From NCBI GenBank assembly GCA_036834125.1, contig DAITOK010000002.1, positions 49,382-113,381 of the forward strand: 64,000 nucleotides of DNA, in the 5' to 3' direction. Each line of letters begins with the position of its first letter. Position 1 is the first letter of the stretch. The translations under genes were made by a program, and so were the position numbers. This document shows, piece after piece, positions 50,614 through 64,000 of this stretch. The notes under the pieces are model-generated. The model was not told the origin of the DNA and did no database searches. It worked only from the letters and a program-made list of their open reading frames with translations. Source of the stretch: Chloroflexota bacterium. Lineage in GTDB: Bacteria > Chloroflexota > Dehalococcoidia > GIF9 > AB-539-J10.

Positions 50614-51756
50614 TTACTGCTTAGAAACTTTTGGCGCTGGCACTGTAGATATAGGGGTTGTGGTTGGGGTGTTTGCCTGTACCGGGGAGTAGGGTAGAGA
50701 AGCCGGCCGGCGCGGACGGCGCAAGAACGAGGGAGCGTCGAGCGTTTCGCCACCGCCTCTAACCAAACGGCGAAGCTCTTCAGTCGCGGCTCCTCCCTGG
50801 CCATATTGAGTAACAAAACCTGTGGCAATGACCGTTATTTGGATTTCGCTGTCCATCTTGGGGTCGTAGACCACGCCGAAGATGATGTTTGCTTCAGGGT
50901 CTACTGCCTGAGCAATTGATTGAGCAGCCTCGTTGCATTCGAACAAGGTCAAGCTGGGACCACCGGTTATGTTGAACAGCACACCCTTAGCTCCAGTTAT
51001 GGATACATCGAGCAACGGGCTGGCGAGAGCAATCTTGGCAGCTTCGGCAGCACGGTTTTGTCCACTGGCTCGGCCGACAGACATCCAGGCTGGACCGGCA
51101 TCCTTCATTACTGACTTGATGTCAGCAAAATCTAGGTTGATTAAACCAGGGACGGTCACCACTTCAGAAATGGCTTTAACCCCGAGGAAAAGAGCGTTGT
51201 CAGCCAGTCGGAAGGCACTATCCACAGGCGTCTTAGCATCGCAGAGCTGAAGAAGACGGTCGTTAGGTACGATGATAAGGGTATCAACCTTACTGGTTAA
51301 AGCCATTAATCCTTCTTCGGCTGTTCTCGCTCTATGCGCTCCCTCGAAGGAGAATGGTTTGGTTACCACGGCAATAGTGAGAGCACCGGACTTTTTGGCG
51401 ATTTCCGCCACAATAGGAATACCACCTGTGCCTGTGCCCCCTCCCATACCGGCAGTGACAAACACCATATCGGCACCTTTAACGAGGTCTTCAATTATTT
51501 CGCGGCTTTCTTCCGCTGCTTTAGCTCCAACCTTGTGATCACCCCCGGCACCCAAACCCCTGGTTAATTTCTCACCCAGTTGAATTCTAGTAGGGGCTTC
51601 AGCCAGGGCTAACGCTTGACCATCGGTATTCATGGCTACGAAGTCAACGCCTTTTATGCCCTCCCGAACCATACGGGTAATGGCATTGCATCCGCCGCCA
51701 CCAATGCCTATGGCCATAATTTTTGCTGGACTTGGAGTATAAATTTGCTTTGCCAT
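50614..51756 (-). CDS. ftsZ: Cell division protein FtsZ
   Basis: GIGGGGCNA, AGMGGGTGTG, INLDFAD and LDAPSFLRR motifs. Confidence 0.98.
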   Translation of the reverse strand: MAKQIYTPSPAKIMAIGIGGGGCNAITRMVREGIKGVDFVAMNTDGQALALAEAPTRIQLGEKLTRGLGAGGDHKVGAKAAEESREIIEDLVKGADMVFVTAGMGGGTGTGGIPIVAEIAKKSGALTIAVVTKPFSFEGAHRARTAEEGLMALTSKVDTLIIVPNDRLLQLCDAKTPVDSAFRLADNALFLGVKAISEVVTVPGLINLDFADIKSVMKDAGPAWMSVGRASGQNRAAEAAKIALASPLLDVSITGAKGVLFNITGGPSLTLFECNEAAQSIAQAVDPEANIIFGVVYDPKMDSEIQITVIATGFVTQYGQGGAATEELRRLVRGGGETLDAPSFLRRPRRPASLPYSPVQANTPTTTPISTVPAPKVSKQ

Positions 51757-51775
51757 TCTAACCTCCTTTCACAAA

Positions 51776-52999
51776 TCAGGCACGAAATAGCCTTCTAAAG
51801 AAATTTACGAAGCCACCAAGGACCCCAGCTCTCTTTACTTGCAAAGCTGATCCTTCTCTGCCGCGCACCTGCCATAGTATTAATCCCAGTGTGGTGGCGT
51901 AAGACGGGTCATGAAGGATATCGGAGATCCCATAGATGCCCGTGTTCAAGGGGCGACCTTTGCGTACTGGCATTCGTAGCAGTGTCTGAGCTAGCTCATC
52001 GAGGCCGGGCAGATTAGCTGTACCGCCGGTTAATACCAAGCCGAAAGGTGCTAGGGTGTGATAATCACTGGTAGGCATTTCCAACAATATGAGTTGGAGT
52101 AATTCTTCCATACGAGCCCGGACAATATTGCACAGGTCTTTGTAAGAAGCACTATGACCATTTTCGATACCTACCTGTACCGTCTCATCAAGCTGTAGGT
52201 TGGGGGTGACATTGGCATACCTCTTCTTCATCTTTTCTGCGATGTTGAAAGGTAAGCCCAGTCCTATGGAGATATCGCTGGTCACTTGGTAACCGGCTAC
52301 AGGGATGACGGAAGTGTGGTAGATACTGCCATTTTTAAATACTGCTATGTCTGTAGTGCCGCCCCCAATGTCAGCCATGATAACACCTGCCTCTCTTTCT
52401 TCGGGAGTTAGCACTGCTTCTGCACTGGCGAGAGGCTCAAGGACTAAATCCTCGACATCAACGCCAGCACTGCGGACACATTTGGCCAGGTTTTGTATCG
52501 AAGTCACTGAAGCAGTTACGATATGGGTTTCCACATCTAACCTGGTGGCATGCATACCTACTGGCTGTTTCACTCCTTCTTGTCCATCCAAAGCGTAATA
52601 TCGAGGAATAGCATGGAGCACTTTCTTTCCTTCGGCGACGGCAATATTACGAGCTGCAGACAGCACCCGTTTAAGGTCTTGGGGACGGACCAGTCTGTCC
52701 TCTCGAGGAATAGCCACTACCCCTCGATTGTTCAGACTGCTGACATGTCGGCCGGTGACTCCAACGTAGGCAGAATCTATGCGTATGCCGCTGATTCTTT
52801 GTGCTTCTCTTACCGATGCAATGACAGATTGTTTGGCTTCATCCATATTGACTACGACGCCTTTGTGCATGCCATGAGAAGGCACGACTCCCACCCCCAA
52901 AACTTCAATATCGTCTTCTCCTTTAACGTTAGCCACGATAGTGGCGATTTTGGTGGTGCCAACATCAATAGCTGAAACGATTCTTTTTGCCATTTTCAC
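51776..52999 (-). CDS. ftsA: Cell division protein FtsA
   Basis: IDVGTTKI, DIGGGTTD and VLTGGTA motifs; C-terminal amphipathic helix. Confidence 0.96.
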   Translation of the reverse strand: MKMAKRIVSAIDVGTTKIATIVANVKGEDDIEVLGVGVVPSHGMHKGVVVNMDEAKQSVIASVREAQRISGIRIDSAYVGVTGRHVSSLNNRGVVAIPREDRLVRPQDLKRVLSAARNIAVAEGKKVLHAIPRYYALDGQEGVKQPVGMHATRLDVETHIVTASVTSIQNLAKCVRSAGVDVEDLVLEPLASAEAVLTPEEREAGVIMADIGGGTTDIAVFKNGSIYHTSVIPVAGYQVTSDISIGLGLPFNIAEKMKKRYANVTPNLQLDETVQVGIENGHSASYKDLCNIVRARMEELLQLILLEMPTSDYHTLAPFGLVLTGGTANLPGLDELAQTLLRMPVRKGRPLNTGIYGISDILHDPSYATTLGLILWQVRGREGSALQVKRAGVLGGFVNFFRRLFRA

Positions 53000-53024
53000 C
53001 TCCTTTTTTGCTGAGAATGCTTGC

Positions 53025-53969
53025 CTAGCTGAGTCGCTCGGCTATCCTTAATCTGGCGCTGCGACTGCGTGGGTTGGATTCTATCTCCAACGAGGTAGGT
53101 CTAATAACCTTCCGTGAGATGAGCTTCAAGGTGGGCATATGCCCACAGCGACAGACTACTGTGCCCGGGGGACATACACAGTCGCTGGCAGCGTATCTCA
53201 TGAATTGCTTAACCATACGGTCTTCTAGAGAATGATAGCTGATGACTGCTAATCTCCCGCCGGGACGAAGGAGGGTGATGGTTTGTTTAAGGGCCAACTC
53301 GAGATTTTGGAGTTCACTGTTGACCGCAATGCGAAGCGCCATGAAGGTTCTTGTAACAGGGTGAATTTTGCCCCGATGTCTCAGGGCACCAGAAGCCTGC
53401 TCTATTAAATGAGCAAGCTCTACGGTGGTGGTGATGGGGCGATTTCGGACGATTTGGCGCGCTATCCGCCGACTGTGACGCTCTTCACCGTATTTCTTTA
53501 GGAGCTTCGCTAACTCTTCCTCTGGGAAGGTATTGACAATGTCGGAGGCGGTCAAAGCTTGTCGAGGGTTGAACCTCATATCCAGAGGAGCATTGAGCTG
53601 GAAGCTGAAGCCGCGTTCGGCTGTATCCAGTTGCAGGGACGAGACACCGAGGTCGAAGAGAATACCGTCAACTGGATGAAATTGGTATTCTCTGCATATC
53701 GCTTCGAGGTTAACAAAATTGTCGTTAACCAGAATAACTTCTTCACCGTAACTGCTGAGCCTGATTTGGCTTAATCTGATGGCTTCAGGATCAGCATCAA
53801 TGCCCAAAAGTCTTCCTGTAGGGGAGATCTTTTCCAGTATGGCTGCTGCATGACTGCCCAGACCGACAGTGCAGTCAACATAGTAGCCCCCTGGTCGAAC
53901 CTGTAACCCGGCTATGACCTCGTTAAGCAGAACGGGCACATGGACTGGTATAGGCATGGTGACGCTCAT
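53025..53969 (-). CDS. rsmH: 16S rRNA m4C1402 methyltransferase
   Basis: [34 protein letters not shown] and NPRSRSA motifs. Confidence 0.97.
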
Positions 53970-53972
53970 CCA

Positions 53973-54395
53973 CTATACTCCGCTTTCAATTATCTGGGAT
54001 GCCTGTTCGTCAGCCAAAGCTTTAGCGGCTCTCCATCCTTCTTCGTTCCAAATCTCGACGTAAGTGTTAGCGCCGACAACAATCGCCGTGTCTCGAATCT
54101 CAGCGTATGCGCGGAACGAGTCGGGCAGCTTTATGCGTCCCTGCCCATCGAACGTGGTGCTGTAGGCAGACGGGAAAATAGCGCGATTTAACTTCCTTAG
54201 GTTGGCGGGAGTCAATGCCTTTTCAGCAAGCTTGTCCGCCAGGCGCTTCCATTCTTTTGCCGGGTAAACGGTAATACACTTTTCTCCCATCCCCTTGGTC
54301 AGTATCACGCCGTCCTTCATCTCTCGCCTGAATTTCGGTGGCAAGGGCACTCTGCCTTTCTCATCCACTTTATATGGGTACTCACCGAAGAACAT
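53973..54395 (-). CDS. mraZ: Transcriptional regulator MraZ
   Basis: MFFGEY...DEKGRV.LP and D.QGRI motifs. Confidence 0.95.
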   Translation of the reverse strand: MFFGEYPYKVDEKGRVPLPPKFRREMKDGVILTKGMGEKCITVYPAKEWKRLADKLAEKALTPANLRKLNRAIFPSAYSTTFDGQGRIKLPDSFRAYAEIRDTAIVVGANTYVEIWNEEGWRAAKALADEQASQIIESGV

Positions 54396-54411
54396 TTTGT
54401 TACCTCAGTTT

Positions 54412-54489
54412 CCCACACAAACCCACAGTGTTACTCCATTTATCCCGCTGTTGATGGTCTTTTCCACCATTTTTCCCCATTTCTCCCCA
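54412..54489 (-). promoter_or_regulatory. MraZ operator array (about 10-bp phased TGGGN/GTGG boxes)
   Basis: Boxes at plus-strand 54485, 54475, 54464, 54444, 54434, 54422 and 54412. Confidence 0.7.
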
Positions 54490-54496
54490 CAATGCT

Positions 54497-54524
54497 ATTA
54501 TAAACCTTACCCTTGTTTTGTCAA
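54497..54524 (-). promoter_or_regulatory. mraZ promoter TTGACA-16-TATAAT
   Basis: Read directly. Confidence 0.8.
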
Positions 54525-54692
54525 TACTTTGTGAGGGATTTTTTTGAAAAAATTGGATAATTTTTTCGAAGCGGCGTCGAAACCGGATTAAGTTGAGTCA
54601 GTGAACATACTGTTCTTTATGCCCAGGAGACTTTGTTTTATCTTAGGCCGTATGGTAAGATATGAGGTTTGAAGGCTCTCGGTTAGGAAACC

Positions 54693-55433
54693 ATGCGTAT
54701 TGATATCTTGTGTCTTTTCCCGGAAACGTTTACCTCTCCACTCAACCAGAGCATCATAAAGCGTGCTCGGGAGCGGGACTTGGTGGATATTGTGGTTCAC
54801 AATATTCGCGATTATACGCATGATAAGCACCGTACTGTTGATGACTATCCTTATGGCGGGGGACCCGGCATGGTGCTCAAGCCCGAGCCTATCTTCGAAG
54901 CAGTCGAAGCAGTAAAGGAGCAACTGGATGTGGGTGAAGTTCCTATCATATTGCTGAGCCCGCAGGGTCGGCTTTTTTCTCAATCTGTGGCGCAGGAACT
55001 AGCCCGTCACTCCAATCTAATAGTGATTTGTGGGCACTATGAAGGGGTGGACGAGAGAGTGTGCCAGTACTTAGCCACTGATGAAATTAGTATTGGGGAT
55101 TATGTCCTGAGCGGGGGAGAATTGGCTGCCTTAGTGGTGGTGGACGCTGTGACCAGGCTGATACCAGGAGTGGTCAGCTCACAAGAATCGGTCAGCCACG
55201 ATTCTCACAGCGACGGGCTTTTGGAATACCCTCAATATACCAGGCCACAGGTATATCGAGGTTGGTCAGTACCGTCAGTTCTACTTTCAGGGAATCATGG
55301 CGAGATCGCTCAATGGCGACGACGCCAGGCGCTCCTGCGAACGGCAAAACGGCGCTCTGACCTTTTAGAAAAAGTTAATCTTGGCGAAGAGGAACGAAAA
55401 TGGATATTAGAGAATTTGTCAAACCCAAAATGA
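54693..55433 (+). CDS. trmD: tRNA (guanine-N1)-methyltransferase
   Basis: [33 protein letters not shown] and LEYPQYTRP motifs. Confidence 0.97.
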
Positions 55434-55831
55434 ATTCCAGTATTCCGCAGGTTTCCCCGGGCGATACAGTTAGAGTTAGCTTGAAGACGAAGGAAGGGGA
55501 GAAGGAGAGAGTGCAGTACTTCCAGGGGGTTGTGATTAAAATGAGGAAGGGGGTTGATGGAGGAAGCTTCACGGTAAGGAGAGTATCTTACGGCGTTGGT
55601 GTGGAACGTACTTTCCCATTTCAATCTCCCTCTGTGCAGAGTGTGGAGGTGCTCAGACACGGACGAGTGCGCCGTGCCAAACTCTACTATATACGCAGAC
55701 TCAGTGTTAAGCAGGCTCGTTTGAAGGAAAGGCGAGAGCAGATATTGGAAGAAGCCTTGCCTCAGGAGGAACCTCAAGGGGCAGAGCTTCTAGGGGAAGT
55801 ACCTCAACAAAAGGAACAGGCTGTTGAATGA
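55400..55831 (+). CDS. rplS: 50S ribosomal protein L19 with acidic C-terminal tail
   Basis: [21 protein letters not shown] and [10 protein letters not shown] motifs. Confidence 0.96.
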
Positions 55832-58251
55832 AGTATGTGGAGGTGGCAGTAAATTCGCCAGGGAGCCGAGCCACTTTTAGCTACGCCATACCATCAAGGT
55901 TCAGTACTGGCATTGGACAAGGTGTTTGGGTTCCGTTTGGCTCTCGGGTTGTCCAGGGGATTGTGCTAGGGTTATCTGATGAGCCGGCGGTCGCAGAGAT
56001 CAAAGAAATACTTGGTGTTATTGCTGATTTTCCTGTACTTTCCTCCACGCAAATAGAGCTTGCCCGATGGATAAGCCAATACTATCACTCTACACTCTTC
56101 GATGCCTTAGCTTTGATGTTGCCTCCAGGCTTTGAAAGACAAGCCATCACTTATTTCCAATTGACAAGTTCCCCAGCAGATTTGTCCCTAACACCGGACC
56201 AAGAGCAGTTTCTTGACATTATCCGAAGGAAAAAGAAGACAAGCTTACTTGAGCTGGAGAAAATCCTTGGCAGAAGAAAAGCCAGACAAATCGCTGGCCA
56301 CTTGTTAGCCCGTGGGCTAATTATTAAAACTCTGGAATTGGGCAAGGCAAAGGTCAAGCCCAAAACAGTTTCTTATATTAAGCTAATAGCTGCGGAAAGT
56401 GAAATTGAAGCAGCCAAGATTCGGTTGAACAAATCTAGAGCTTACAAGCAAGTTGAACTCTTAAAATTTCTAGCTAGACAAACTCAACCCATTTCACTTA
56501 GCGAACTACGGAAAATGTTCAAAGTTTCTCCAGCTACTATCAAAGCTCTAGAAAGATGCCACTTGGTCTCCCTGGAAAAAGTCAGAGTAAAGCGTGACCC
56601 TTTATCTCGTTTCAGCTTCACTCCTTCTTCGCCACCGGCTCTCACTTCATCTCAACAAGCTGCTTGGCAAGCGCTCCGAGATGTTATTGTGAACGGAGCT
56701 AGACAATCTGGCAAAACACCTGTTTTTCTGCTGTTCGGTGTTACTGGTAGTGGCAAGACCGAGATTTATTTGCGAGCTCTGGAGCAAGTCATCACCAGCG
56801 GGAAGCGCGGGATTTGTCTTATTCCGGAAATTGCCTTGACTCAACAAACAGTAGAGAGATTTGCTAGTCGCTTCCCTGGGCGTATAGCTGTACTGCACAG
56901 CGGGCTTTCTCCAGGAGAACAGTTCGACGAATGGCAGTGGATAAGGGAGGGGAACTGCGACGTGGTTATTGGGCCAAGGAGCGCCCTGTTTGCGCCGTTG
57001 CCCAATCTAGGTCTTATCATCATTGATGAAGAGCATGAATGGACATACAAGCAAGAAGAGAAATCGCCTCGCTATCACGCTCGAGATGTTGCCATTAAGT
57101 TGGCTGAACTCAATAACGCTGTGGTCATTTTAGGTAGTGCTACACCTGATGTTGGCAGCTTCTATAAAGCACAGCAAGGCGAATATCAGCTCATAGAGCT
57201 AAAAGAAAGAATTACTCCTCGTGGTTATTCTCCTCTTCCCGAAGTAAGCATAGTAGATTTGAGGGAGGAACTTAAATCTGGGCACACAAGTTTACTTAGC
57301 CGTTCTTTGTTAGCGGCTATGAAAGAAACCTTGGCGCAAGGCGAGCAAAGTATTCTTTTCCTCAACCGCCGGGGCACATCTACCTTTGTTCGATGTGGTA
57401 ACTGTGGCTTCGTTTTTCGCTGTCCTCGCTGCTCTATAGCTCTTACTTACCATTCTGTAGAGAAAAGATTAATTTGTCATCGTTGCCGCTATTTTGTTCC
57501 GATAGCTACGAGTTGTCCGCAGTGCTTTCGGCGCCACCTCAGATTTCTGGGTATCGGCACACAAAGGGTGGAGGAGGAGGTGAAGTATTTCTTTCCCGAA
57601 GCAAGGGTACTTCGCTGGGATAGAGATGTGATTACCAAAAAATATACCCATGAGGACTTGTTGAAAGACTTTCGCGACTGCAAAGCAGATGTTCTTATTG
57701 GCACCCAGATGATCGCTAAAGGATTAGACCTGCCTCAGGTGACTTTAGCTGGTGTGATCAACGCCGATATTGGTCTTAATTTTCCTGATTTCCGAAGTAG
57801 CGAGCGCACCTTCCAGCTCTTGTGTCAAGTGGCAGGAAGAGCCGGACGGGGGGTCAAAGCTGGAAAAGTGATCATCCAGACCTACTCTCCTGATAATTAT
57901 GCTATTGAAGCTGCTGCTAAGCATGATTATCTCGGCTTCTACAGCAAGGAAATAGAATATCGCCGCGAGTACAACTATCCCCCTTTCAGCCGGTTGGTGC
58001 GGTTGGTTTATACTCACACCAACGAGGCATCCTGCCGTCGTGAAGTGGAACGGATTTACCACCTGATAGCTGATAGCTGGCGGCCGACAGATGGTAGCAT
58101 AATTGGTCCCGTGCCTGCCTTTGCTTTCCGAGTCAGAGACAGGTATCGCTGGCAGCTTTTTCTTCGCGGTCCGAACCCCGCCCCAATATTATCTCAGGTC
58201 ACTTTGCGACCAGGTTGGACTGTAGACGTTGACCCAGTAGAAATGGTTTGA
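55828..58251 (+). CDS. priA: Primosomal protein N'
   Basis: GVTGSGKTEIY, DEEHE, LNRRG, CxxC pairs, GTQMIAKGLD and QVAGRAGR motifs. Confidence 0.97.
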   Translation: MKYVEVAVNSPGSRATFSYAIPSRFSTGIGQGVWVPFGSRVVQGIVLGLSDEPAVAEIKEILGVIADFPVLSSTQIELARWISQYYHSTLFDALALMLPPGFERQAITYFQLTSSPADLSLTPDQEQFLDIIRRKKKTSLLELEKILGRRKARQIAGHLLARGLIIKTLELGKAKVKPKTVSYIKLIAAESEIEAAKIRLNKSRAYKQVELLKFLARQTQPISLSELRKMFKVSPATIKALERCHLVSLEKVRVKRDPLSRFSFTPSSPPALTSSQQAAWQALRDVIVNGARQSGKTPVFLLFGVTGSGKTEIYLRALEQVITSGKRGICLIPEIALTQQTVERFASRFPGRIAVLHSGLSPGEQFDEWQWIREGNCDVVIGPRSALFAPLPNLGLIIIDEEHEWTYKQEEKSPRYHARDVAIKLAELNNAVVILGSATPDVGSFYKAQQGEYQLIELKERITPRGYSPLPEVSIVDLREELKSGHTSLLSRSLLAAMKETLAQGEQSILFLNRRGTSTFVRCGNCGFVFRCPRCSIALTYHSVEKRLICHRCRYFVPIATSCPQCFRRHLRFLGIGTQRVEEEVKYFFPEARVLRWDRDVITKKYTHEDLLKDFRDCKADVLIGTQMIAKGLDLPQVTLAGVINADIGLNFPDFRSSERTFQLLCQVAGRAGRGVKAGKVIIQTYSPDNYAIEAAAKHDYLGFYSKEIEYRREYNYPPFSRLVRLVYTHTNEASCRREVERIYHLIADSWRPTDGSIIGPVPAFAFRVRDRYRWQLFLRGPNPAPILSQVTLRPGWTVDVDPVEMV

Positions 58252-58316
58252 GTTTGCAAGCATTTGTCTACAGCTAGCAATTGCCGAGGAAAATTACCTT
58301 CCGTTTTTATAGCTTG

Positions 58317-58601
58317 TCATCCACCAACGGCAGGTGGAAAGACGTGCAGCACGTCTCCTTCTTTTAGCGCGTTGCTCTTCAGATTTCGCAAAGCGATGCC
58401 GTTCAGCAAAATGAGCGAATAGTCCTGTATCTTGCCGTCGAGGCGAATTCCGGCATCTGCAAGTTTTTCCCGGAGCTGAGAACCGAATTTCTCATCGAGC
58501 TGGATTAGTGCCTCATCTATATTGTCGGCTTGCAAGGTGGCGCTGTCTATACCCAGATAAGAACGCCAGAGGCTATAGAAGCGTACCAAAATTAAAGCCA
58601 T
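58317..58601 (-). CDS. MoaD/ThiS family sulfur carrier
   Basis: Beta-grasp pattern ILLNG...LKEGD...FPPAVGG with a C-terminal GG. Confidence 0.9.
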   Translation of the reverse strand: MALILVRFYSLWRSYLGIDSATLQADNIDEALIQLDEKFGSQLREKLADAGIRLDGKIQDYSLILLNGIALRNLKSNALKEGDVLHVFPPAVGG

Positions 58602-58605
58602 GTCT

Positions 58606-59484
58606 TCACCTACTTAGCTCGATTCTATCAATAACAAACTCCTTGGCATCAACTAGCAGGATTTGGTTGCGTACAGATATGCCGACCCCAGTTATAATCT
58701 TGATTATCTCCTGAACTTCGAGTGCCGCAATCATGGCTGCTGTGGCAGGAGGATTGCCAATCGTGGTTTCTATGCCTTGTTCGGGCGTGGTATCCGAGGA
58801 GGAATCATAAAGCGAAGATAAACCAACGTCTTGAGGAAAAATAGTCATGAGTTGTCCGCTGAACCCAGCTATTGAGGCGTAGACATAAGGAATGCCCAGC
58901 TCACGGCAAGCCTGCTCAACAACCAGGCGCGACGGCAAGTTATCCAGCCCATCAGCTACGACATCGGCATCACTAAGGAGATTACGGGCATTCTCCCGGG
59001 TCAATCTTTGGCGGAATGCCGTAACCTTGATTGCTGAATTTATCCTGGCAACTCTTCTTGCCGCTATAGTCACCTTATATTTGCCCAGATTCTGTTCTGT
59101 GGACATAATCTGTCTGTTCAAATTCTGTTCTGCGAAGCGGTCGTCATCAATAATAATTAGATGCCCCGTTCCGTGTCTGGCTAGCAACTCAATAACAGCG
59201 CTGCCCAAGCCTCCTGCTCCTACTACGGCTACAGTTGACTGTAGGAGCTTAATTTGTCCATCCAGACCAATTGTCCCTATATTGCGGAGATAGCGTCGGG
59301 GCACAATCCCTTGTTGCAATGCTGTTATTTCCACTTCCTTCGCTGACATCCCTAAAGAATTGGCTATAGATGCCTCGGTTTTTAAGCTGATAACGAGCAC
59401 CTCTTTCCCGTCGGGAGCGATACATACTTCTGCCGATTGAGCGATATGCCGGCTAATCTCTTTGTCGGTCTTATTGTTTTTCAC
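58606..59484 (-). CDS. ThiF/MoeB/HesA family adenylyltransferase lacking Zn-binding cysteines
   Basis: RYLRNI, VVGAGGLG, DDD...NLNRQ and DGLDN motifs. Confidence 0.9.
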   Translation of the reverse strand: MKNNKTDKEISRHIAQSAEVCIAPDGKEVLVISLKTEASIANSLGMSAKEVEITALQQGIVPRRYLRNIGTIGLDGQIKLLQSTVAVVGAGGLGSAVIELLARHGTGHLIIIDDDRFAEQNLNRQIMSTEQNLGKYKVTIAARRVARINSAIKVTAFRQRLTRENARNLLSDADVVADGLDNLPSRLVVEQACRELGIPYVYASIAGFSGQLMTIFPQDVGLSSLYDSSSDTTPEQGIETTIGNPPATAAMIAALEVQEIIKIITGVGISVRNQILLVDAKEFVIDRIELSR

Positions 59485-59571
59485 TAAGCCACCTTTACCG
59501 CCTGTACAATATGTACCCTATATAAATTATAATATGTTAAGAAGCAAATTAGGGAAGGGAGATTAGGACAG

Positions 59572-59940
59572 GTGAATGAAGTCAAAGTAAAGGAAGGGCA
59601 GGAACTTAACGGTCTGGGGATAATGCTCAAGCAGATTATTGACGCTAACCTTAAGGATCCCAGGAAATTTGAGAGTGTCAGGAATGTGAGGGGAAGCGTA
59701 GTCATCAGGGAGGCAACTTCTGGTGTAGCCGTTACATTGCATCTCAATAGGGGCGACTTGGAGTTGGAGAACGATGCCATCGCCAAGCCCACGGCATCCA
59801 TGGAAGCCGGGTTTGAGAATCTGGCATATATCAGCTCTGGTCAACTCAATCCGGTGGTCGCCATATTCACAGGTAAGCTTAAGTCTAGAGGTAATTTATT
59901 CCTGCTGCTCAAGCTGTCCAAAATAATGGTGCTGAAATAG
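59572..59940 (+). CDS. SCP2 sterol-binding-domain protein
   Basis: C-terminal NPVVAIFTGKLKSRGN typical of SCP2. Confidence 0.7.
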   Translation: MNEVKVKEGQELNGLGIMLKQIIDANLKDPRKFESVRNVRGSVVIREATSGVAVTLHLNRGDLELENDAIAKPTASMEAGFENLAYISSGQLNPVVAIFTGKLKSRGNLFLLLKLSKIMVLK

Positions 59941-59964
59941 GACAATCTGCGTTGGGGCAGGCTT

Positions 59965-59997
59965 TGATATAATGTTCATTTCATAAAATGATATAAT
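59965..59997 (+). promoter_or_regulatory. Two extended -10 elements TGATATAAT, 24 bp apart
   Basis: At 59965-59973 and 59989-59997. Confidence 0.45.
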
Positions 59998-60029
59998 TGA
60001 GTACTAAGAATCCACGGGAGGAGGTAAGA

Positions 60030-60440
60030 ATGGCTATTTTATTTGGAACCCAAGAATGGGTAGATGCTTTGAAGGATGCACTGAAGAAGAGCCAGGCATA
60101 TAAGGAGGCAGCCAAGAATTGGGAAGGAGATTTGTACATCATTGTGGAACCTGACGCGGCGTACAAGAATAGGCACATTCTGTATCTGGATCTATGGCAT
60201 GGCGAGTGTCGTGAGGCTCGCGTGATTACAGACGAAAATGAAAAGTCTCCGAAGTACCGCATTTCTGGCCCGTTTACCAGCATGAAGCAAATACTGGACA
60301 AGAAAGTTGACCCGGTCCAGTCCATGATGACTGGCAAGATCAAGGTCAAAGGCGACATGGCTCAAATAATGAAGATGCCCCGAGCCGCCGTGGAGCTGGT
60401 CAATTGTATGACCGCATTTGAGACAGTGTTCCCTAGCTAG
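60030..60440 (+). CDS. SCP2 sterol-binding-domain protein
   Basis: FGTQEW, Y..AAKNWEGD, LDLWHGEC and DPVQSMMTGKIKVKGDM motifs; start taken at ATG 60030. Confidence 0.85.
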   Translation: MAILFGTQEWVDALKDALKKSQAYKEAAKNWEGDLYIIVEPDAAYKNRHILYLDLWHGECREARVITDENEKSPKYRISGPFTSMKQILDKKVDPVQSMMTGKIKVKGDMAQIMKMPRAAVELVNCMTAFETVFPS

Positions 60441-60522
60441 CCGTTCAACCCATGTGACAATATGGGCTGCCAGTAGCAATCAATCTATCTGGAGAAGACG
60501 AGTTAGCTGAAAGGATATAGAT

Positions 60523-61689
60523 ATGTGGTATTTTGTTGCTCCTCAGGTCGTTTTTGGACAGGACGCGCTGAGTCATCTGGCTCAATTGAAAGGTAAACTT
60601 GCATTCATCGTTACTGACAAGAACATTGTTAAGCTTGGGATTGTTGACAAGGTCAAAGAACAACTCTCTCAAGCAGGGATAGGAGCTACGGTTTTTGATG
60701 AAGTTGAGCCTGACCCATCGCTGCAGACCGTGGAGAAAGGCGTAGCCCTGATGAATAGCTGTGCGCCAGATCTAGTTGTTGCCGTCGGCGGAGGCTCAGT
60801 TATGGATGCAGCTAAGGCGATGAGGGTGCAATACGAAAGGCCAGATATCAGACCCGAGGAGATTAACCCATTTATTTCAGACCTGGGTCTCGGTAGGAAG
60901 TGCAAGCTTGTTTGCATTTCTACAACTTCGGGTACCGGTGCCGAGGCAACCTTTGCCATCGTGCTGACTGATACAACGGACCAGAGGAAGCTGAGTCTTA
61001 TCAACCGTGAGATTGTGCCCGATATCGCTATTGTGGACCCAGAACTAGCAAGAGGAATGCCTCCGCAAATCACAGCGGACACCGGTATGGACGTGTTGAC
61101 CCATGCTGTTGAAGGATTCATCTGTACATGGAAAAATGACTTCACTGATGGTCTCTGTCTTAAGGCTTTACAGCTCGTTTTCCAATATCTTCCCAGGGCG
61201 GTGAGAGACGGAAATGATATGGAAGCCAGGGAAAAGATGCATAATGCGGCTTGTATTGCAGGTATTGGCTTCATCAACGCGCTGACAGCTATGGCTCATG
61301 CCGCTGGTCATTCCTGGGGTGCTTTGTTCCATATTCCTCATGGCAGGGCGGTAGGCTTGTTTTTGCCTTATACTATTGAGTTCATCGGCGAGGCTCGTGA
61401 GGAGCTCTGGTCAGAGATAGCTTATGCTATCAAACTCCGAGTGCCTGAAGGCGAAAGAGCCGGTAAAGTTTTGGTTCAAGCTATACGGGAACTGGCTCGC
61501 AATATCAATCAACCGTTGAACATCAAAGAAACCGGTATTCCATCGGAGAGTTTTCAGAAAGCTATTCCCAAGCTAATAGATAATGTCATGGCTGATGGTT
61601 CGCTCATCGTCTCCCCCAGAATACCCGATGCTACAGAAGCTGAGAAGTTTTTCCAGTATGCATACGAAGGTAAAAGCATAGATTTCTAG
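60523..61689 (+). CDS. Iron-containing alcohol dehydrogenase
   Basis: GGGSVMDAAK, TTSGTGAE, DVLTHAVE, AHA.GH and HGRA motifs. Confidence 0.93.
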   Translation: MWYFVAPQVVFGQDALSHLAQLKGKLAFIVTDKNIVKLGIVDKVKEQLSQAGIGATVFDEVEPDPSLQTVEKGVALMNSCAPDLVVAVGGGSVMDAAKAMRVQYERPDIRPEEINPFISDLGLGRKCKLVCISTTSGTGAEATFAIVLTDTTDQRKLSLINREIVPDIAIVDPELARGMPPQITADTGMDVLTHAVEGFICTWKNDFTDGLCLKALQLVFQYLPRAVRDGNDMEAREKMHNAACIAGIGFINALTAMAHAAGHSWGALFHIPHGRAVGLFLPYTIEFIGEAREELWSEIAYAIKLRVPEGERAGKVLVQAIRELARNINQPLNIKETGIPSESFQKAIPKLIDNVMADGSLIVSPRIPDATEAEKFFQYAYEGKSIDF

Positions 61690-61748
61690 CTCCGCTGGAA
61701 CTTGGTTGTTGATTCCGAAGATTCCGGGGCTGCAAGGAGGTAAGGAAT

Positions 61749-62012
61749 ATGGCACGTTTCATGGTCGTTCATAAAGCACCGTTCACCGAGGAGGAGTTGA
61801 TTGCCCGCGCCAAAGCTGCACCCAATTATTTGCCGGAAGGCGTCTCCTGGATACGCAGTTACTGCGATTTCAAGGGAAACACGCATTTCTGTGAATGGGA
61901 AGCACCTGACGAGAAGCTGTTGAAGCGAATCCTCAACTTGACGCAGGCGCCATTTGAGACAATCCATCGGGTGCGACGAATGGACGCTATCAAAGCCAAA
62001 TTCGAGGAATGA
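61749..62012 (+). CDS. DUF4242 (SCO4226-like) small protein
   Basis: GVSWIRSY....FCEWEAPD pattern. Confidence 0.65.
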   Translation: MARFMVVHKAPFTEEELIARAKAAPNYLPEGVSWIRSYCDFKGNTHFCEWEAPDEKLLKRILNLTQAPFETIHRVRRMDAIKAKFEE

Positions 62013-62057
62013 CTTGGGTTGCCCCGGTCCTTATGGGCGAACGAAAGGAGGACAGAC

Positions 62058-63914
62058 ATGTTCGGTTATATGGGGCAGATACTGAGGGTTGATTTATCAA
62101 GCGGCAGGCTATCCAAAGAGGCTCTCAAAGAGCAGGATTGTAAGATGTTCCTGGGGGGTAGCGGACTGGCAACGAAATATCTTTTCGACGAAGTGCCCAA
62201 GGGCACCGATCCCCTGAGTCCTGACAATAGGCTAATTCTTATGACTGGTCCTTTGACGGGCACGGAATCACCGAGCGCTGGCAGGTACTGTGCGGTTACC
62301 AAATCGCCTCTAACTGGTCTGTGGGGAGAAGCAAACTCTGGGGGCACCTGGGGAGTGTATCTAAAGAACTCCGGCTTCGATGGAATTATTTTTGAGGGTG
62401 TGTCGCCACAGCCGGTGTATTTGGTAATAGATGACGGGAAAGCGGAATTGAAGGATGCTAAGGCTTTGTGGGGCAAGGGCGTTGGTGAGACTACCAGAAC
62501 AATCAGAGACGAACTGGGGGATGCCTTTAACATTGCCTGCATTGGCATCGCCGGTGAAAACTTGGTCAGGTACGCAGGCATCTTCAATGATGTTCATCGT
62601 CCTGCCGGCAGATGTGGTGTCGGCACAGTAATGGGTTCAAAGCGGTTAAAGGCAGTGGCTGCCGGAGGGGCGCAGGAGATCAAAGTAGCTAGTAAGGAAG
62701 CCTTCAGCCAGATCTCTAAGAGAAATTACGACCTGGTCAATGAAAGCCTGCTGAAGATTACATTGGAAACCTACGGGACGGCTATGGTTACCGATCTGGT
62801 GAATGTGAGGGGAGGATTTCCTACCAGGAACTGGCAGACTGGTGTGTTTCCGGACATAGATAAGATAAGCGGGGTGACGATGGCAAATACCCTCCTGGTG
62901 GACAGAAAGCATTGCTATGCCTGTCCTATTAGCTGCGGTCGGGTAACAGTCGTCAGGAGTGGTCCTTATGCCTGTAAAGGAGAAGGTCCAGAATTTGAGA
63001 CGATCGGTGCCTTCGGTGGGATGTGTGCGCTAGATAATCTTGAAGCGGTGACGCTGGCACATAACTTGTGCGATGAATACGGATTGGATGTGATTTCCAC
63101 AGGGAGCACGATAGCATTTGCCATAGAATGCTATGAGAAAGGGATATTGACCAAGTCCGACACCGATGGATTGGAACTGAGATTCGGTGAGCCAGATGCT
63201 GTCATTCAGCTCATACACAAAATAGCCAAAAGGGAAGGTATCGGCGACTTGTTAGCCGAAGGAACCAGAAGAGCGGCAGCAAGGCTGAACAGGGGTGCGG
63301 AAAGGTTTGCTATGCACGTAAAGGGATTGGAGTTGCCGGCTTACGATCCACGAGCCGCCAAGATATGCGGCCTGGCATTCGTCACGGCTAATCGTGGCGG
63401 CGATCACATTACAGCCTATGTTGAAGGTCCAGCTTTTGTAGACACACCGTTCCTCTGCGTTGAGAATAGCAAAATTGAAGATTGGATGGTGGAAAATCCT
63501 GCCGAAGCCAAGGTTGTCAAAGACCTTGAGGATGCCCTCACGGTTTTTGATTGTATGGGGGTGTGCAAGTTCATGGGCATGGCGCTGGCTGCCGAAGACT
63601 GGGTGGATATGATAGCCAATTGTGTTGGCTGGGAGCTCAGCGTCAGCGATTTCCGAAAAATCGGCGAAAGAGTTTATAACCTGGCTAGGGCTTTCAATGT
63701 CAGGGAAGGACTGACCAGAGCGGATGACACCTTGCCGAAGCGATTGCTTGAGGATCCATTACCCGAAGGCGCCGCACAGGGGCATACCATGAAAAGGTTG
63801 GACGAATCACTGGATGCCTATTATGAGTTTCGTGGCTGGGATAAGAACACAGGAAAGCCGACCCCGGAAAAACTCAAGGAGCTGGGTCTGGATTATGTGA
63901 TAGACAGGATATAG
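62058..63914 (+). CDS. aor: Aldehyde:ferredoxin oxidoreductase (tungstopterin AOR family)
   Basis: KSPLTG, GRCGVGTVMGSK, GPEFET, DVISTG, NRGGDH and DCMGVCKF motifs; start ATG 62058 with SD AAAGGAGG. Confidence 0.94.
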   Translation: MFGYMGQILRVDLSSGRLSKEALKEQDCKMFLGGSGLATKYLFDEVPKGTDPLSPDNRLILMTGPLTGTESPSAGRYCAVTKSPLTGLWGEANSGGTWGVYLKNSGFDGIIFEGVSPQPVYLVIDDGKAELKDAKALWGKGVGETTRTIRDELGDAFNIACIGIAGENLVRYAGIFNDVHRPAGRCGVGTVMGSKRLKAVAAGGAQEIKVASKEAFSQISKRNYDLVNESLLKITLETYGTAMVTDLVNVRGGFPTRNWQTGVFPDIDKISGVTMANTLLVDRKHCYACPISCGRVTVVRSGPYACKGEGPEFETIGAFGGMCALDNLEAVTLAHNLCDEYGLDVISTGSTIAFAIECYEKGILTKSDTDGLELRFGEPDAVIQLIHKIAKREGIGDLLAEGTRRAAARLNRGAERFAMHVKGLELPAYDPRAAKICGLAFVTANRGGDHITAYVEGPAFVDTPFLCVENSKIEDWMVENPAEAKVVKDLEDALTVFDCMGVCKFMGMALAAEDWVDMIANCVGWELSVSDFRKIGERVYNLARAFNVREGLTRADDTLPKRLLEDPLPEGAAQGHTMKRLDESLDAYYEFRGWDKNTGKPTPEKLKELGLDYVIDRI

Positions 63915-63925
63915 ACGGTGAAGTT

Positions 63926-64000
63926 ATGGCTAGCGTGTCTGACAAACCCTGGCTGAAACAATACAGGATGGGTCCTTATAAGCTCCCGCATACCAAAGAG
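63926..64000 (+). CDS. 5' end of probable long-chain acyl-CoA synthetase; runs off window
   Basis: MASVSDKPWLKQY...; KPWLK.Y is a typical FadD-like N-terminus. Only 25 codons are visible. Confidence 0.45.
   Translation, partial: MASVSDKPWLKQYRMGPYKLPHTKE

Follow-up and report, generated by a model that had tools for sequence, protein, structure and literature searches.

Positions 59572–64000 of the window, a 64,000-nucleotide (nt) stretch of DNA from an uncultured, sediment-dwelling bacterium of the Dehalococcoidia (Chloroflexota) analyzed here as a whole, probably hold the first five genes and the beginning of the sixth gene of a seven-gene operon. The operon encodes two stand-alone SCP2-fold proteins (SCP2a and SCP2b), an iron-dependent alcohol dehydrogenase (Fe-ADH), a small DUF4242 protein, a tungsten-type aldehyde:ferredoxin oxidoreductase (W-AOR, hereafter AOR), a FadD-like acyl-CoA synthetase (hereafter the ligase), and a protein that joins a ferredoxin domain to an FrhB-like domain (Fer4+FrhB). 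On balance, its products are best read as a pathway that converts a water-insoluble alcohol via the aldehyde and the acid into an acyl-CoA, with the hydrophobic substrate held by the SCP2 carriers.

The listing of open reading frames (ORFs) and Pfam assign five complete genes to the segment, namely SCP2, SCP2, Fe-ADH, SCO4226-like/DUF4242, and AOR; of a sixth gene, the initial 25 codons lie within it. All genes lie on the plus strand and are separated by 89, 82, 59, 45, and 11 nt:

59572–59940, plus strand: SCP2a, stand-alone SCP2-fold protein, 122 amino acids (aa); Pfam SCP2 38 bits (cut-off 21.3)
60030–60440, plus strand: SCP2b, stand-alone SCP2-fold protein, 136 aa; Pfam SCP2 48 bits (cut-off 21.3)
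60523–61689, plus strand: group III iron-dependent alcohol dehydrogenase, 388 aa; PF00465 160.8 bits, PF25137 149.6 bits
61749–62012, plus strand: SCO4226-like/DUF4242 small ferredoxin-fold protein, 87 aa; Pfam PF14026 47.6 bits (cut-off 28.5)
62058–63914, plus strand: tungsten-type aldehyde:ferredoxin oxidoreductase, AOR sensu stricto, 618 aa; AFOR_N 265.6 bits, AFOR_C 474.5 bits
63926–64000, plus strand: 5′ end (25 codons in the window) of the FadD-like AMP-forming acyl-CoA synthetase; 560 aa on contig L001, ending at window-equivalent position 65608

L001 is a public contig that was found via the exact DUF4242 protein and stands in for the sequence beyond the window end. It shows 0 mismatches to window positions 51749–64000 across 12,252 bases and extends 8 kb further. 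Past AOR it carries the genes of the 560-aa ligase and the 369-aa Fer4+FrhB-like protein, beyond which an AbfD-like gene, DUF169, recR, ybaB, and dnaX lie on the opposite strand. The initial annotation had described a co-oriented SCP2-SCP2-FeADH-DUF4242-AOR string in a Dehalococcoidia setting, had guessed that the partly visible sixth gene is an acyl-CoA ligase, and had named a different downstream gene as grounds for giving up its reading. Pfam places all five complete genes as described, and a Dehalococcoidia origin is backed by AORs that are 77–89% identical in metagenome-assembled genomes (MAGs) of this class. The guess on the sixth gene was correct, because its counterpart on L001 carries the AMP-binding and AMP-binding_C domains of a FadD-like AMP-forming ligase. 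The seventh conserved gene (Fer4 + FrhB-like, 369 aa) lay beyond the view of the initial annotation, and a divergent ThiF/MoaD pair that it had taken as a separate finding is placed with the operon here.

In the proposed pathway, Fe-ADH would oxidize a poorly soluble primary alcohol to the aldehyde with NAD(P)+, and the tungstopterin-dependent AOR would convert the aldehyde to the carboxylic acid. The ligase would then turn the acid immediately into acyl-CoA at the expense of ATP and CoA, for use in β-oxidation or in lipids. SCP2a and SCP2b may keep both the substrate, which is hydrophobic, and the reactive aldehyde in solution and shuttle them among the soluble enzymes. From the AOR [4Fe-4S] cluster, electrons would pass through the FrhB-like protein, by way of its two-cluster ferredoxin domain and its flavin, and end on F420 or a different two-electron carrier; ThiF/MoaD would contribute to cofactor maturation. 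In this scheme, we infer the direction of flux, the hydrophobic or long-chain nature of the substrate, the function of SCP2 as a carrier, and the identity of the electron acceptor.

The AOR ORF spans 62019–63914, and its likely start is the ATG at 62058, which aligns with residue 1 of Pyrococcus furiosus AOR. Residues 1–611 align with 1–601 of 1aor (E 3e-159), and the segments CYACPISC, DCMGVC, CDEYGLD, EGPEFET, and GGDH are all kept in alignment with the P. furiosus residues. The protein thus has the CxxCxxxC motif and distal Cys that bind the [4Fe-4S] cluster, both pterin motifs of the form DxxGL(D/C), and the equivalents of the active-site residues Glu313 and His448. By class, the protein would be a tungsten aldehyde oxidoreductase, with both metal and aldehyde activity predicted from these motifs. 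Fe-ADH keeps the dinucleotide motif GGGS89 and the Asp/His3 metal site in D186xxxD190xxxH194, H259/H263, and H270/H273. It reaches no NCBIfam equivalog cut-off (PRK13805 345 versus 951 bits, 4HyButDH 198 versus 500). The ATG of the ligase at 63926 opens MASVSDKPWLKQYRMGPYKLPHTKE, after which the gene leaves the window. On L001 the ligase scores 288.6 bits on AMP-binding and also matches AMP-binding_C; it keeps TGGATGMPKG, YGLTE, TGD, and LPLTVTLK (motifs A3, A5, and A7 and the A10 Lys), and its best PDB match is 3g7s (E 1e-55). Its best NCBIfam families are long-chain-fatty-acid–CoA ligases (PRK08314 366 bits; FadD, PRK08974, 338 bits over the full length). Both scores lie under the curated cut-offs, so that the ligase is FadD-like but no FadD equivalog.

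The conservation of the module was surveyed with AOR by scanning one genome per species; the 80 closest loci were analyzed by tblastn and ORF clustering, with simple ORF calls of our own in the related loci. An orthologous ligase lies directly 3′ of AOR in 77/77 loci with at least 600 nt downstream, starting 13–384 nt away (median 18). An SCP2b-family gene is found within −6/+7 kb of AOR in 71/83 loci; the 12 loci that lack it mostly lie on truncated contigs. Since this association with the AOR clade extends across phyla and domains, the SCP2 proteins that the initial annotation had drawn into the pathway are not incidental. Among the carriers of the module are Dehalococcoidia, Desulfobacterota, Actinomycetota, and Asgard archaea. 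SCP2b precedes AOR in Dehalococcoidia and Desulfobacterota; Lokiarchaeia, Actinomycetota, and some Dehalococcoidia have it 3′ of the ligase, and Thor- and Hodarchaeota carry it in divergent orientation. In a reciprocal metagenome scan with an SCP2b profile (80 loci), Fe-ADH and then AOR come after SCP2b relatives of as little as 45% identity wherever the contig allows.

The 33 loci with an AOR of at least 77% identity are all of the Dehalococcoidia type except for one MAG labelled Desulfobacteraceae (L032). In the 33 Dehalococcoidia-type loci the additions are Fe-ADH (29 loci), the FrhB-like gene (28), DUF4242 (19), SCP2a (at least 13), ThiF (14), and MoaD (10). The invariant core consists of SCP2, AOR, and the ligase, to which particular lineages add Fe-ADH, the second SCP2, and DUF4242. 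Of the carrier-assisted route from alcohol to acyl-CoA that had been put forward in the initial annotation, the enzyme chain stands with intact motifs in ADH, AOR, and ligase, as does the association with SCP2; the core of the system is narrower than the six genes that it had listed, and the specificity for long-chain, ether-lipid, or isoprenoid substrates and the reversibility that it had proposed are putative. The operon order is also found in dozens of metagenome contigs. Because it recurs in these and in 33 Dehalococcoidia-type species genomes, the gene arrangement is far from chance.

Gene fusions tie the parts of the module together. AOR and ligase form one ORF of 1210–1222 aa with a linker of ~45 aa in six Thor/Hodarchaeota loci, and a length-restricted protein search finds at least 36 full-length 90%-identity clusters of such fusions (1204–1226 aa) in Thor- and Hodarchaeota. 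Their architecture is AFOR_N-AFOR_C-AMP-binding, with the FeS and ligase motifs kept. Single-chain FeADH-AOR fusions of ~1000 aa occur in Heimdall and other Asgard archaea (P0173–P0184), and one cluster of the SCP2b profile search is a 717-aa SCP2b-FeADH fusion with an SCP2a-like C terminus. The SCP2-FeADH-SCP2, FeADH-AOR, and AOR-ligase fusions thus act as Rosetta-stone links between carrier and ADH, between ADH and AOR, and between AOR and ligase. AORs of 700–750 aa were considered as SCP2 fusions and rejected, as their extra length consists of Lys/Ala tails or N-terminal signal-like extensions. Two further kinds of AOR fusion were seen. One is a ThiS/MoaD-AOR fusion of 708 aa (P0185). In the other, AORs of ~810–860 aa from Methanomethylicia, Nezhaarchaeota, and Hodarchaeota (P0116–P0155) are fused to an OMP-decarboxylase-fold/3-hexulose-6-phosphate synthase-like domain, which suggests that AOR is tied to formaldehyde/RuMP (ribulose monophosphate) chemistry in these proteins.

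That an adenylating enzyme is always adjacent, or even fused, to AOR is formally compatible with an ATP-driven carboxylate reduction as well. Here, the acid would be activated by the ligase to an acyl-adenylate or acyl-CoA, from which AOR would form the aldehyde, in the manner of a tungsten analog of carboxylic acid reductase. The class II benzoyl-CoA reductase BamB (4z3w), which is among the PDB matches of AOR, is an AOR-family enzyme that acts on CoA esters. However, the operon AOR has all canonical residues and matches 1aor at E 3e-159 versus 1e-72 for BamB, and the order of AOR at the N terminus and ligase at the C terminus, together with the intact CoA-ligase motifs, fits the ordinary reaction. 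We know of no precedent for ATP-driven carboxylate reduction by an AOR, and this reading is very improbable. The oxidative, CoA-forming direction is favored because the order of AOR and ligase is invariable and the two are fused. Activation of the acid costs two ATP equivalents and is therefore sensible only if the acyl chain is worth degrading.

A paralogous module without a ligase or FrhB gene bears on the direction of the pathway. In metagenome loci L128–L167 it takes the form SCP2b′ (45–52% identical)-[DUF4242′, 30–39%]-FeADH′ (51–63%)-AOR′ (39–51%), with varying flanks (e.g., L154:7001–9700, L131, L159, L165). In the tree, the AORs of the paralogous module form a clade (support 1.0) apart from the ligase-linked AORs. 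The latter, among them the AOR of the window, fall into two clades, one bacterial (66 tips, 1.0) and one Asgard (16 tips, 1.0). The existence of this module speaks for a reductive role, in which AOR, supplied with electrons by reduced ferredoxin or, through the FrhB-like protein, by F420H2, would convert a fatty acid to the aldehyde and Fe-ADH would convert the aldehyde to the fatty alcohol, either for ether-lipid or wax synthesis or as an electron sink, with the ligase as a branch point. Acid-to-alcohol routes via AOR are established in acetogens and Pyrococcus, AOR and Fe-ADH are reversible, and carriers would be equally useful in fatty alcohol synthesis. Against it, the ligase is adjacent in 77/77 loci and lies C-terminal to AOR in the Asgard fusions, which fits a hand-over from acid to acyl-CoA; β-oxidation genes stand beside the module in some loci, and no fatty-alcohol-consuming lipid synthesis genes recur next to it. 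A reductive role is thus quite unlikely for the operon and fits better with the ligase-free paralogous module than with the ligase-linked one.

SCP2b is a carrier family that is tied to AOR across phyla. Its ORF spans 59997–60440 with the ATG at 60030 as the likely start; a TTG start at 59997 is unlikely, since MAILFG opens both the genes called on identical contigs and the homologs. The AF2 (AlphaFold2) model of SCP2b has a pLDDT (predicted local distance difference test) of 94.7, and its top Foldseek match is Thermus SCP2 (2cx7) with a TM (template modeling) score of 0.84; next come the SCP2 proteins of yeast, human, and insect origin, UbiJ, and alkylsulfatase C-domains. Going by this model, an SCP2 fold is predicted with confidence. 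A profile search with the SCP2b alignment yields 715 representative clusters at E ≤ 1e-10. The most conserved motif of SCP2b is WEGD/DLWHGxC, missing in one subgroup. SCP2a is a distant paralog of SCP2b (hhalign E 3.7e-4) whose best PDB matches are eukaryotic SCP2 domains (4uei, E 3.6e-5). It is present in at least 13 Dehalococcoidia loci and many metagenome contigs. In Thorarchaeota, a 136-aa ORF adjoining SCP2b was tried as a further SCP2 and discarded, as it has no detectable SCP2 likeness. SCP2b-type domains are additionally fused to a B12-binding radical SAM enzyme, a small methyltransferase, and R2-like proteins (P0262, P0298, P0335, P0326), the last having the ribonucleotide-reductase-small-chain fold of R2-like ferritin proteins. 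As judged from these fused sequences, the carrier domain has evidently been reused with other enzymes.

Long or bulky hydrophobic chains are the putative substrates to which the SCP2 partners, the FadD-like ligase, a cholesterol-oxidase-like substitute for ADH, and occasional β-oxidation neighbors point. The substitute is a GMC flavoprotein whose gene lies directly upstream of SCP2/AOR, co-oriented, in seven loci and which matches the cholesterol-oxidase model over its full length with 576 bits (cut-off 850). It looks like a non-orthologous displacement of the alcohol dehydrogenase by a type that is used for bulky hydrophobic alcohols. Genes of enoyl-CoA hydratase and acyl-CoA dehydrogenase are found beside the module in seven loci each.

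Several points weigh against a hydrophobic substrate and the oxidative direction. The best PDB match of Fe-ADH is the ADH domain of AdhE (3zdr, E 8e-92), an ethanol/acetaldehyde type, and AOR has its nearest relative in the broad-range P. furiosus enzyme; neither of the two gives a pointer to long chains. The ligase falls below every NCBIfam cut-off (PRK08314 366 versus 705 bits, PRK08974 338 versus 884), and the β-oxidation neighbors are confined to a minority of loci. AOR reactions are reversible, and pairs of AOR and ADH run reductively in acetogens. The polar His and Cys of the WEGD/DLWHGxC motif are unusual for a passive lipid carrier, and this sequence signature hints at a role of SCP2b beyond passive binding. 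Every homolog found comes from a MAG or metagenome; when cultured carriers of the module were sought via the Desulfobacterota SCP2b, the matches were MAG and metagenome proteins only.

The main rival accordingly keeps the same enzyme chain and assigns it a non-lipid (short-chain or aryl) substrate range. Short-/medium-chain or aromatic aldehydes and alcohols from fermentation would be converted, with 2-oxoacid decarboxylation of amino acids or glycyl-radical eliminases as sources, and SCP2 would act as a structural or regulatory partner of AOR or as a carrier of aryl compounds. The nearest relatives of ADH (AdhE-type domains) and AOR (broad-specificity P. furiosus AOR) agree with such substrates, as do the genes of RidA, a PFL2-3-family glycyl radical enzyme, and an activase after the operon in 5–7 Dehalococcoidia loci and a thiamine pyrophosphate (TPP) enzyme upstream in three loci. 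In addition, the AORs of sediment Chloroflexi and Asgard archaea have been assigned to aldehydes from organic and amino acids (PMC3971608, PMC8163825). On the other hand, AMP-forming activation of a small acid consumes two ATP equivalents and pays only with further acyl-CoA degradation, an SCP2-fold protein is a near-obligate partner across phyla and is fused to ADH, the cholesterol-oxidase-like GMC enzyme replaces ADH in seven loci, and no IOR/VOR or aminotransferase neighbor recurs in the surveyed loci. A non-lipid substrate range is therefore unlikely, and the route from a hydrophobic alcohol to acyl-CoA is preferred.

The FrhB-like gene follows the ligase in 28/33 Dehalococcoidia-type loci. 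Its 369-aa product consists of an N-terminal 2×[4Fe-4S] ferredoxin domain and the domains FrhB_N/FrhB_C, and it stays under the NCBIfam FrhB cut-off (223.7 versus 269 bits). The best solved relatives are 8riu_B (E 1e-51, residues 4–332) and 8rja_E (E 1e-46), the zeta subunits of ethane-oxidizing archaea. These dock by their N-terminal two-cluster ferredoxin domain onto carbon monoxide dehydrogenase (CODH) and formylmethanofuran dehydrogenase (Fwd) and divert the electrons of the normally ferredoxin-linked CODH/Fwd to F420 (PMC11493965). Because size and domain order equal those of the zeta subunits, the FrhB-like protein is by analogy the likely acceptor for AOR electrons in Dehalococcoidia.

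The divergent ThiF/MoaD pair and the region that separates it from the operon comprise the following features:

58317–58601, minus strand: MoaD/ThiS-like small protein, 94 aa, with C-terminal GG; Pfam ThiS 21.1 bits, just below the cut-off of 22.5
58606–59484, minus strand: ThiF/MoeB-like adenylyltransferase, 292 aa; Pfam ThiF 197.9 bits
59485–59571, no strand assigned: intergenic region between the divergent genes, containing a TATAAT-like, AT-rich element plus a ribosome-binding site

The ThiF/MoeB-like protein has only two Cys, no CxxC zinc motif, and an N-terminal extension of ~60 aa, and its matches to the NCBIfam ThiF and MoeB models are all under the cut-off. A divergent ThiF is found at the same place in 14 and MoaD in 10 Dehalococcoidia loci, and a 96-aa ThiS-family gene (Pfam 45 bits) stands beside the module in 19 of the other 50 loci. 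The MoaD-like protein is probably a sulfur carrier, and the pair probably matures the pterin cofactor. In the intergenic region, the element AATTATAATATAATA is common to the relatives (L009–L105) and appears as AAATTATAATATG in the window; this AATTATAATATAATA element is probably a promoter. A GTACA-N3-TGTAC palindrome in the same region of the window is not kept in the relatives, and a generic promoter/terminator scan gave counts no higher than shuffles.

The DUF4242 protein is a putative accessory protein; its AF2 model (pLDDT 93.2) has a single Foldseek match at E ≤ 0.001, namely SCO4226 (4oi6, TM 0.73). Against NCBIfam NF033706 the protein scores 20.3 bits and does not reach the cut-off of 125. 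The invariant residues are H8, W34, S37, C48, W50, and P53, and the FCEWEAP motif is family-wide and uninformative on function. SCO4226 is a low-affinity Ni binder, with Ni ligands that are conserved only in Streptomyces (PMC4186839). The gene is present in 19/33 Dehalococcoidia-type loci and takes a different position in the paralogous SCP2-FeADH-AOR module. At L013:9688–9951, the DUF4242 gene has a scrambled N-terminal third, which could be a frameshift or a MAG assembly error.

Beyond the window, one more gene bears on the function of the operon:

L001:15413–16909 (window-equivalent 67161–68657), minus strand: AbfD-like protein, 498 aa, outside the window; best PDB match 1u8v, E 2e-91

This convergent gene lies ~190 nt past the FrhB-like gene, adjoins the module in about eight close relatives, and its product keeps the cluster ligands C99, C103, H292, and C299 as well as Tyr296 in the alignment to 1u8v. 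It raises the possibility of a 4-hydroxybutyrate/succinic semialdehyde cluster, with Fe-ADH as 4-hydroxybutyrate dehydrogenase, AOR acting on succinic semialdehyde, the ligase forming 4-hydroxybutyryl-CoA, and the AbfD-like protein as the dehydratase. However, the gene is on the opposite strand and absent at most related loci, where other genes take its place. Glu455 and Glu257 of the Clostridium aminobutyricum enzyme, which we take from the mutagenesis literature to be catalytic residues of 4-hydroxybutyryl-CoA dehydratase, are replaced by Gly and Asp, respectively, in the AbfD-like protein. The ADH scores 198 bits on the 4-hydroxybutyrate dehydrogenase model, below its AdhE, lactaldehyde reductase, and ErcA scores, and SCP2 carriers would be senseless for C4 hydroxy acids. 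With a convergent gene that is not conserved with the module and Gly at the position of Glu455, a 4-hydroxybutyrate cluster deserves next to no credence and was ruled out.

Other neighbors differ between lineages. In L004:12241–16005 and L006:15138–18921, the operon is followed by the genes of RidA, an 805-aa glycyl radical enzyme, and an activase. The 805-aa enzyme scores above the cut-off on TIGR01774 (PFL2-3), while the sulfopropanediol dehydratase, CutC, and HypD models all stay below; it could be an aldehyde-forming eliminase that feeds AOR, or unrelated. The flanks in Loki and Desulfobacterales include phenylalanyl-tRNA synthetase (PheRS), a class I (Trp/Tyr-type) tRNA synthetase, pyruvate phosphate dikinase (PPDK), a HAD hydrolase, and shikimate genes, and these look like synteny by descent rather than pathway partners. 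Shikimate dehydrogenase, shikimate kinase, and chorismate synthase surround the triad in the Desulfobacterales loci L056, L058, and L060, probably as inherited synteny. Because the remaining flanks are unrelated housekeeping genes, the module behaves as a self-contained unit.

The components of the operon resemble known systems. P. furiosus AOR (1AOR) and the AOR+ADH routes of anaerobes share the [4Fe-4S] Cys motif, the pterin motifs, the Glu/His active site, the pairing with ADH, and a nearby MoaD-like gene. They differ in that the operon AOR is always followed by an acyl-CoA synthetase (fused to it in Asgard archaea) and is accompanied by SCP2-fold proteins and, in Dehalococcoidia, an FrhB-type partner. 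To our knowledge, the ligase, SCP2, and an FrhB-type partner are not part of described AOR systems. AorABC from Aromatoleum aromaticum (8C0Z) likewise contains a tungsten AOR (E 4e-125) with a dedicated FeS/flavin partner instead of free ferredoxin, and the Aromatoleum Aor operon has MoaD-type maturation genes. There, the polyferredoxin AorA and the NAD-linked AorC are used in place of the single Fer4+FrhB protein, and the Aor operon is without ligase and SCP2.

The Fer4+FrhB protein is comparable to the zeta subunit of CODH/ACDS (acetyl-CoA decarbonylase/synthase) and Fwd (8RIU, 8RJA; PMC11493965) in length (369 aa versus 370 and 359), in its 2×[4Fe-4S] and FrhB flavin/[4Fe-4S] domains, and in being encoded with an enzyme that normally uses ferredoxin. 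Here, it is bacterial and part of an AOR operon, with F420 use and complex formation predicted. The SCP2 proteins share their fold with eukaryotic peroxisomal SCP2/SCPx, MFE-2 domains, and Thermus thermophilus SCP2 (2CX7/1WFR), which are likewise tied to fatty acyl/CoA enzymes by operons or fusions. In contrast to these, they are stand-alone, prokaryotic, associated with ADH/AOR/ligase instead of thiolase/hydratase, and marked by their own WEGD/DLWHGxC signature. The ligase has the ANL fold and motifs of Escherichia coli FadD and Archaeoglobus fulgidus FadD-1 (3G7S) and matches the FadD model over its full length, but it belongs to a clade of its own that is always AOR-linked, sometimes AOR-fused, and under every equivalog cut-off. 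Full-text literature searches returned no paper that joins AOR with SCP2 or sterol carrier protein. In the papers found on Thor/Loki AORs the AOR-ligase fusion is not described, and these AORs and those of sediment Chloroflexi are treated as generic aldehyde oxidizers. The components are thus known; what is apparently undescribed is that they are obligately associated, that they form fusions, and that an FrhB-type partner joins them.

As a more far-reaching and tentative possibility, SCP2, AOR, and ligase may represent an ancient cross-domain machine of strict anaerobes that converts insoluble aldehydes (fatty, isoprenoid, or from sterol side chains) into acyl-CoA. SCP2 would be a stoichiometric delivery subunit and the acid would be channeled from AOR to the ligase, with an F420-reductase-type subunit bolted on in Dehalococcoidia.

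In anoxic sediments, Dehalococcoidia, Desulfobacterota, and Asgard archaea belong to the most abundant cells, and their diet is mostly inferred from gene lists in which AORs are lumped together as “organic acid/aldehyde” enzymes. The module points to a testable class of substrates, namely fatty/isoprenoid alcohols and aldehydes from waxes, ether lipids, phytol, and sterol side chains, and the fusion proteins lend themselves directly to expression and assay. If the proposed pathway is true, carrier-assisted tungsten catalysis would be a biochemically new arrangement, as would the natural AOR-ligase fusion that turns an aldehyde into acyl-CoA and low-potential electrons. The AOR may possibly be F420-linked, which would make it the first bacterial aldehyde:F420 (or deazaflavin/flavin) oxidoreductase, and abundant sediment lineages would gain a dedicated route into buried lipid alcohols.

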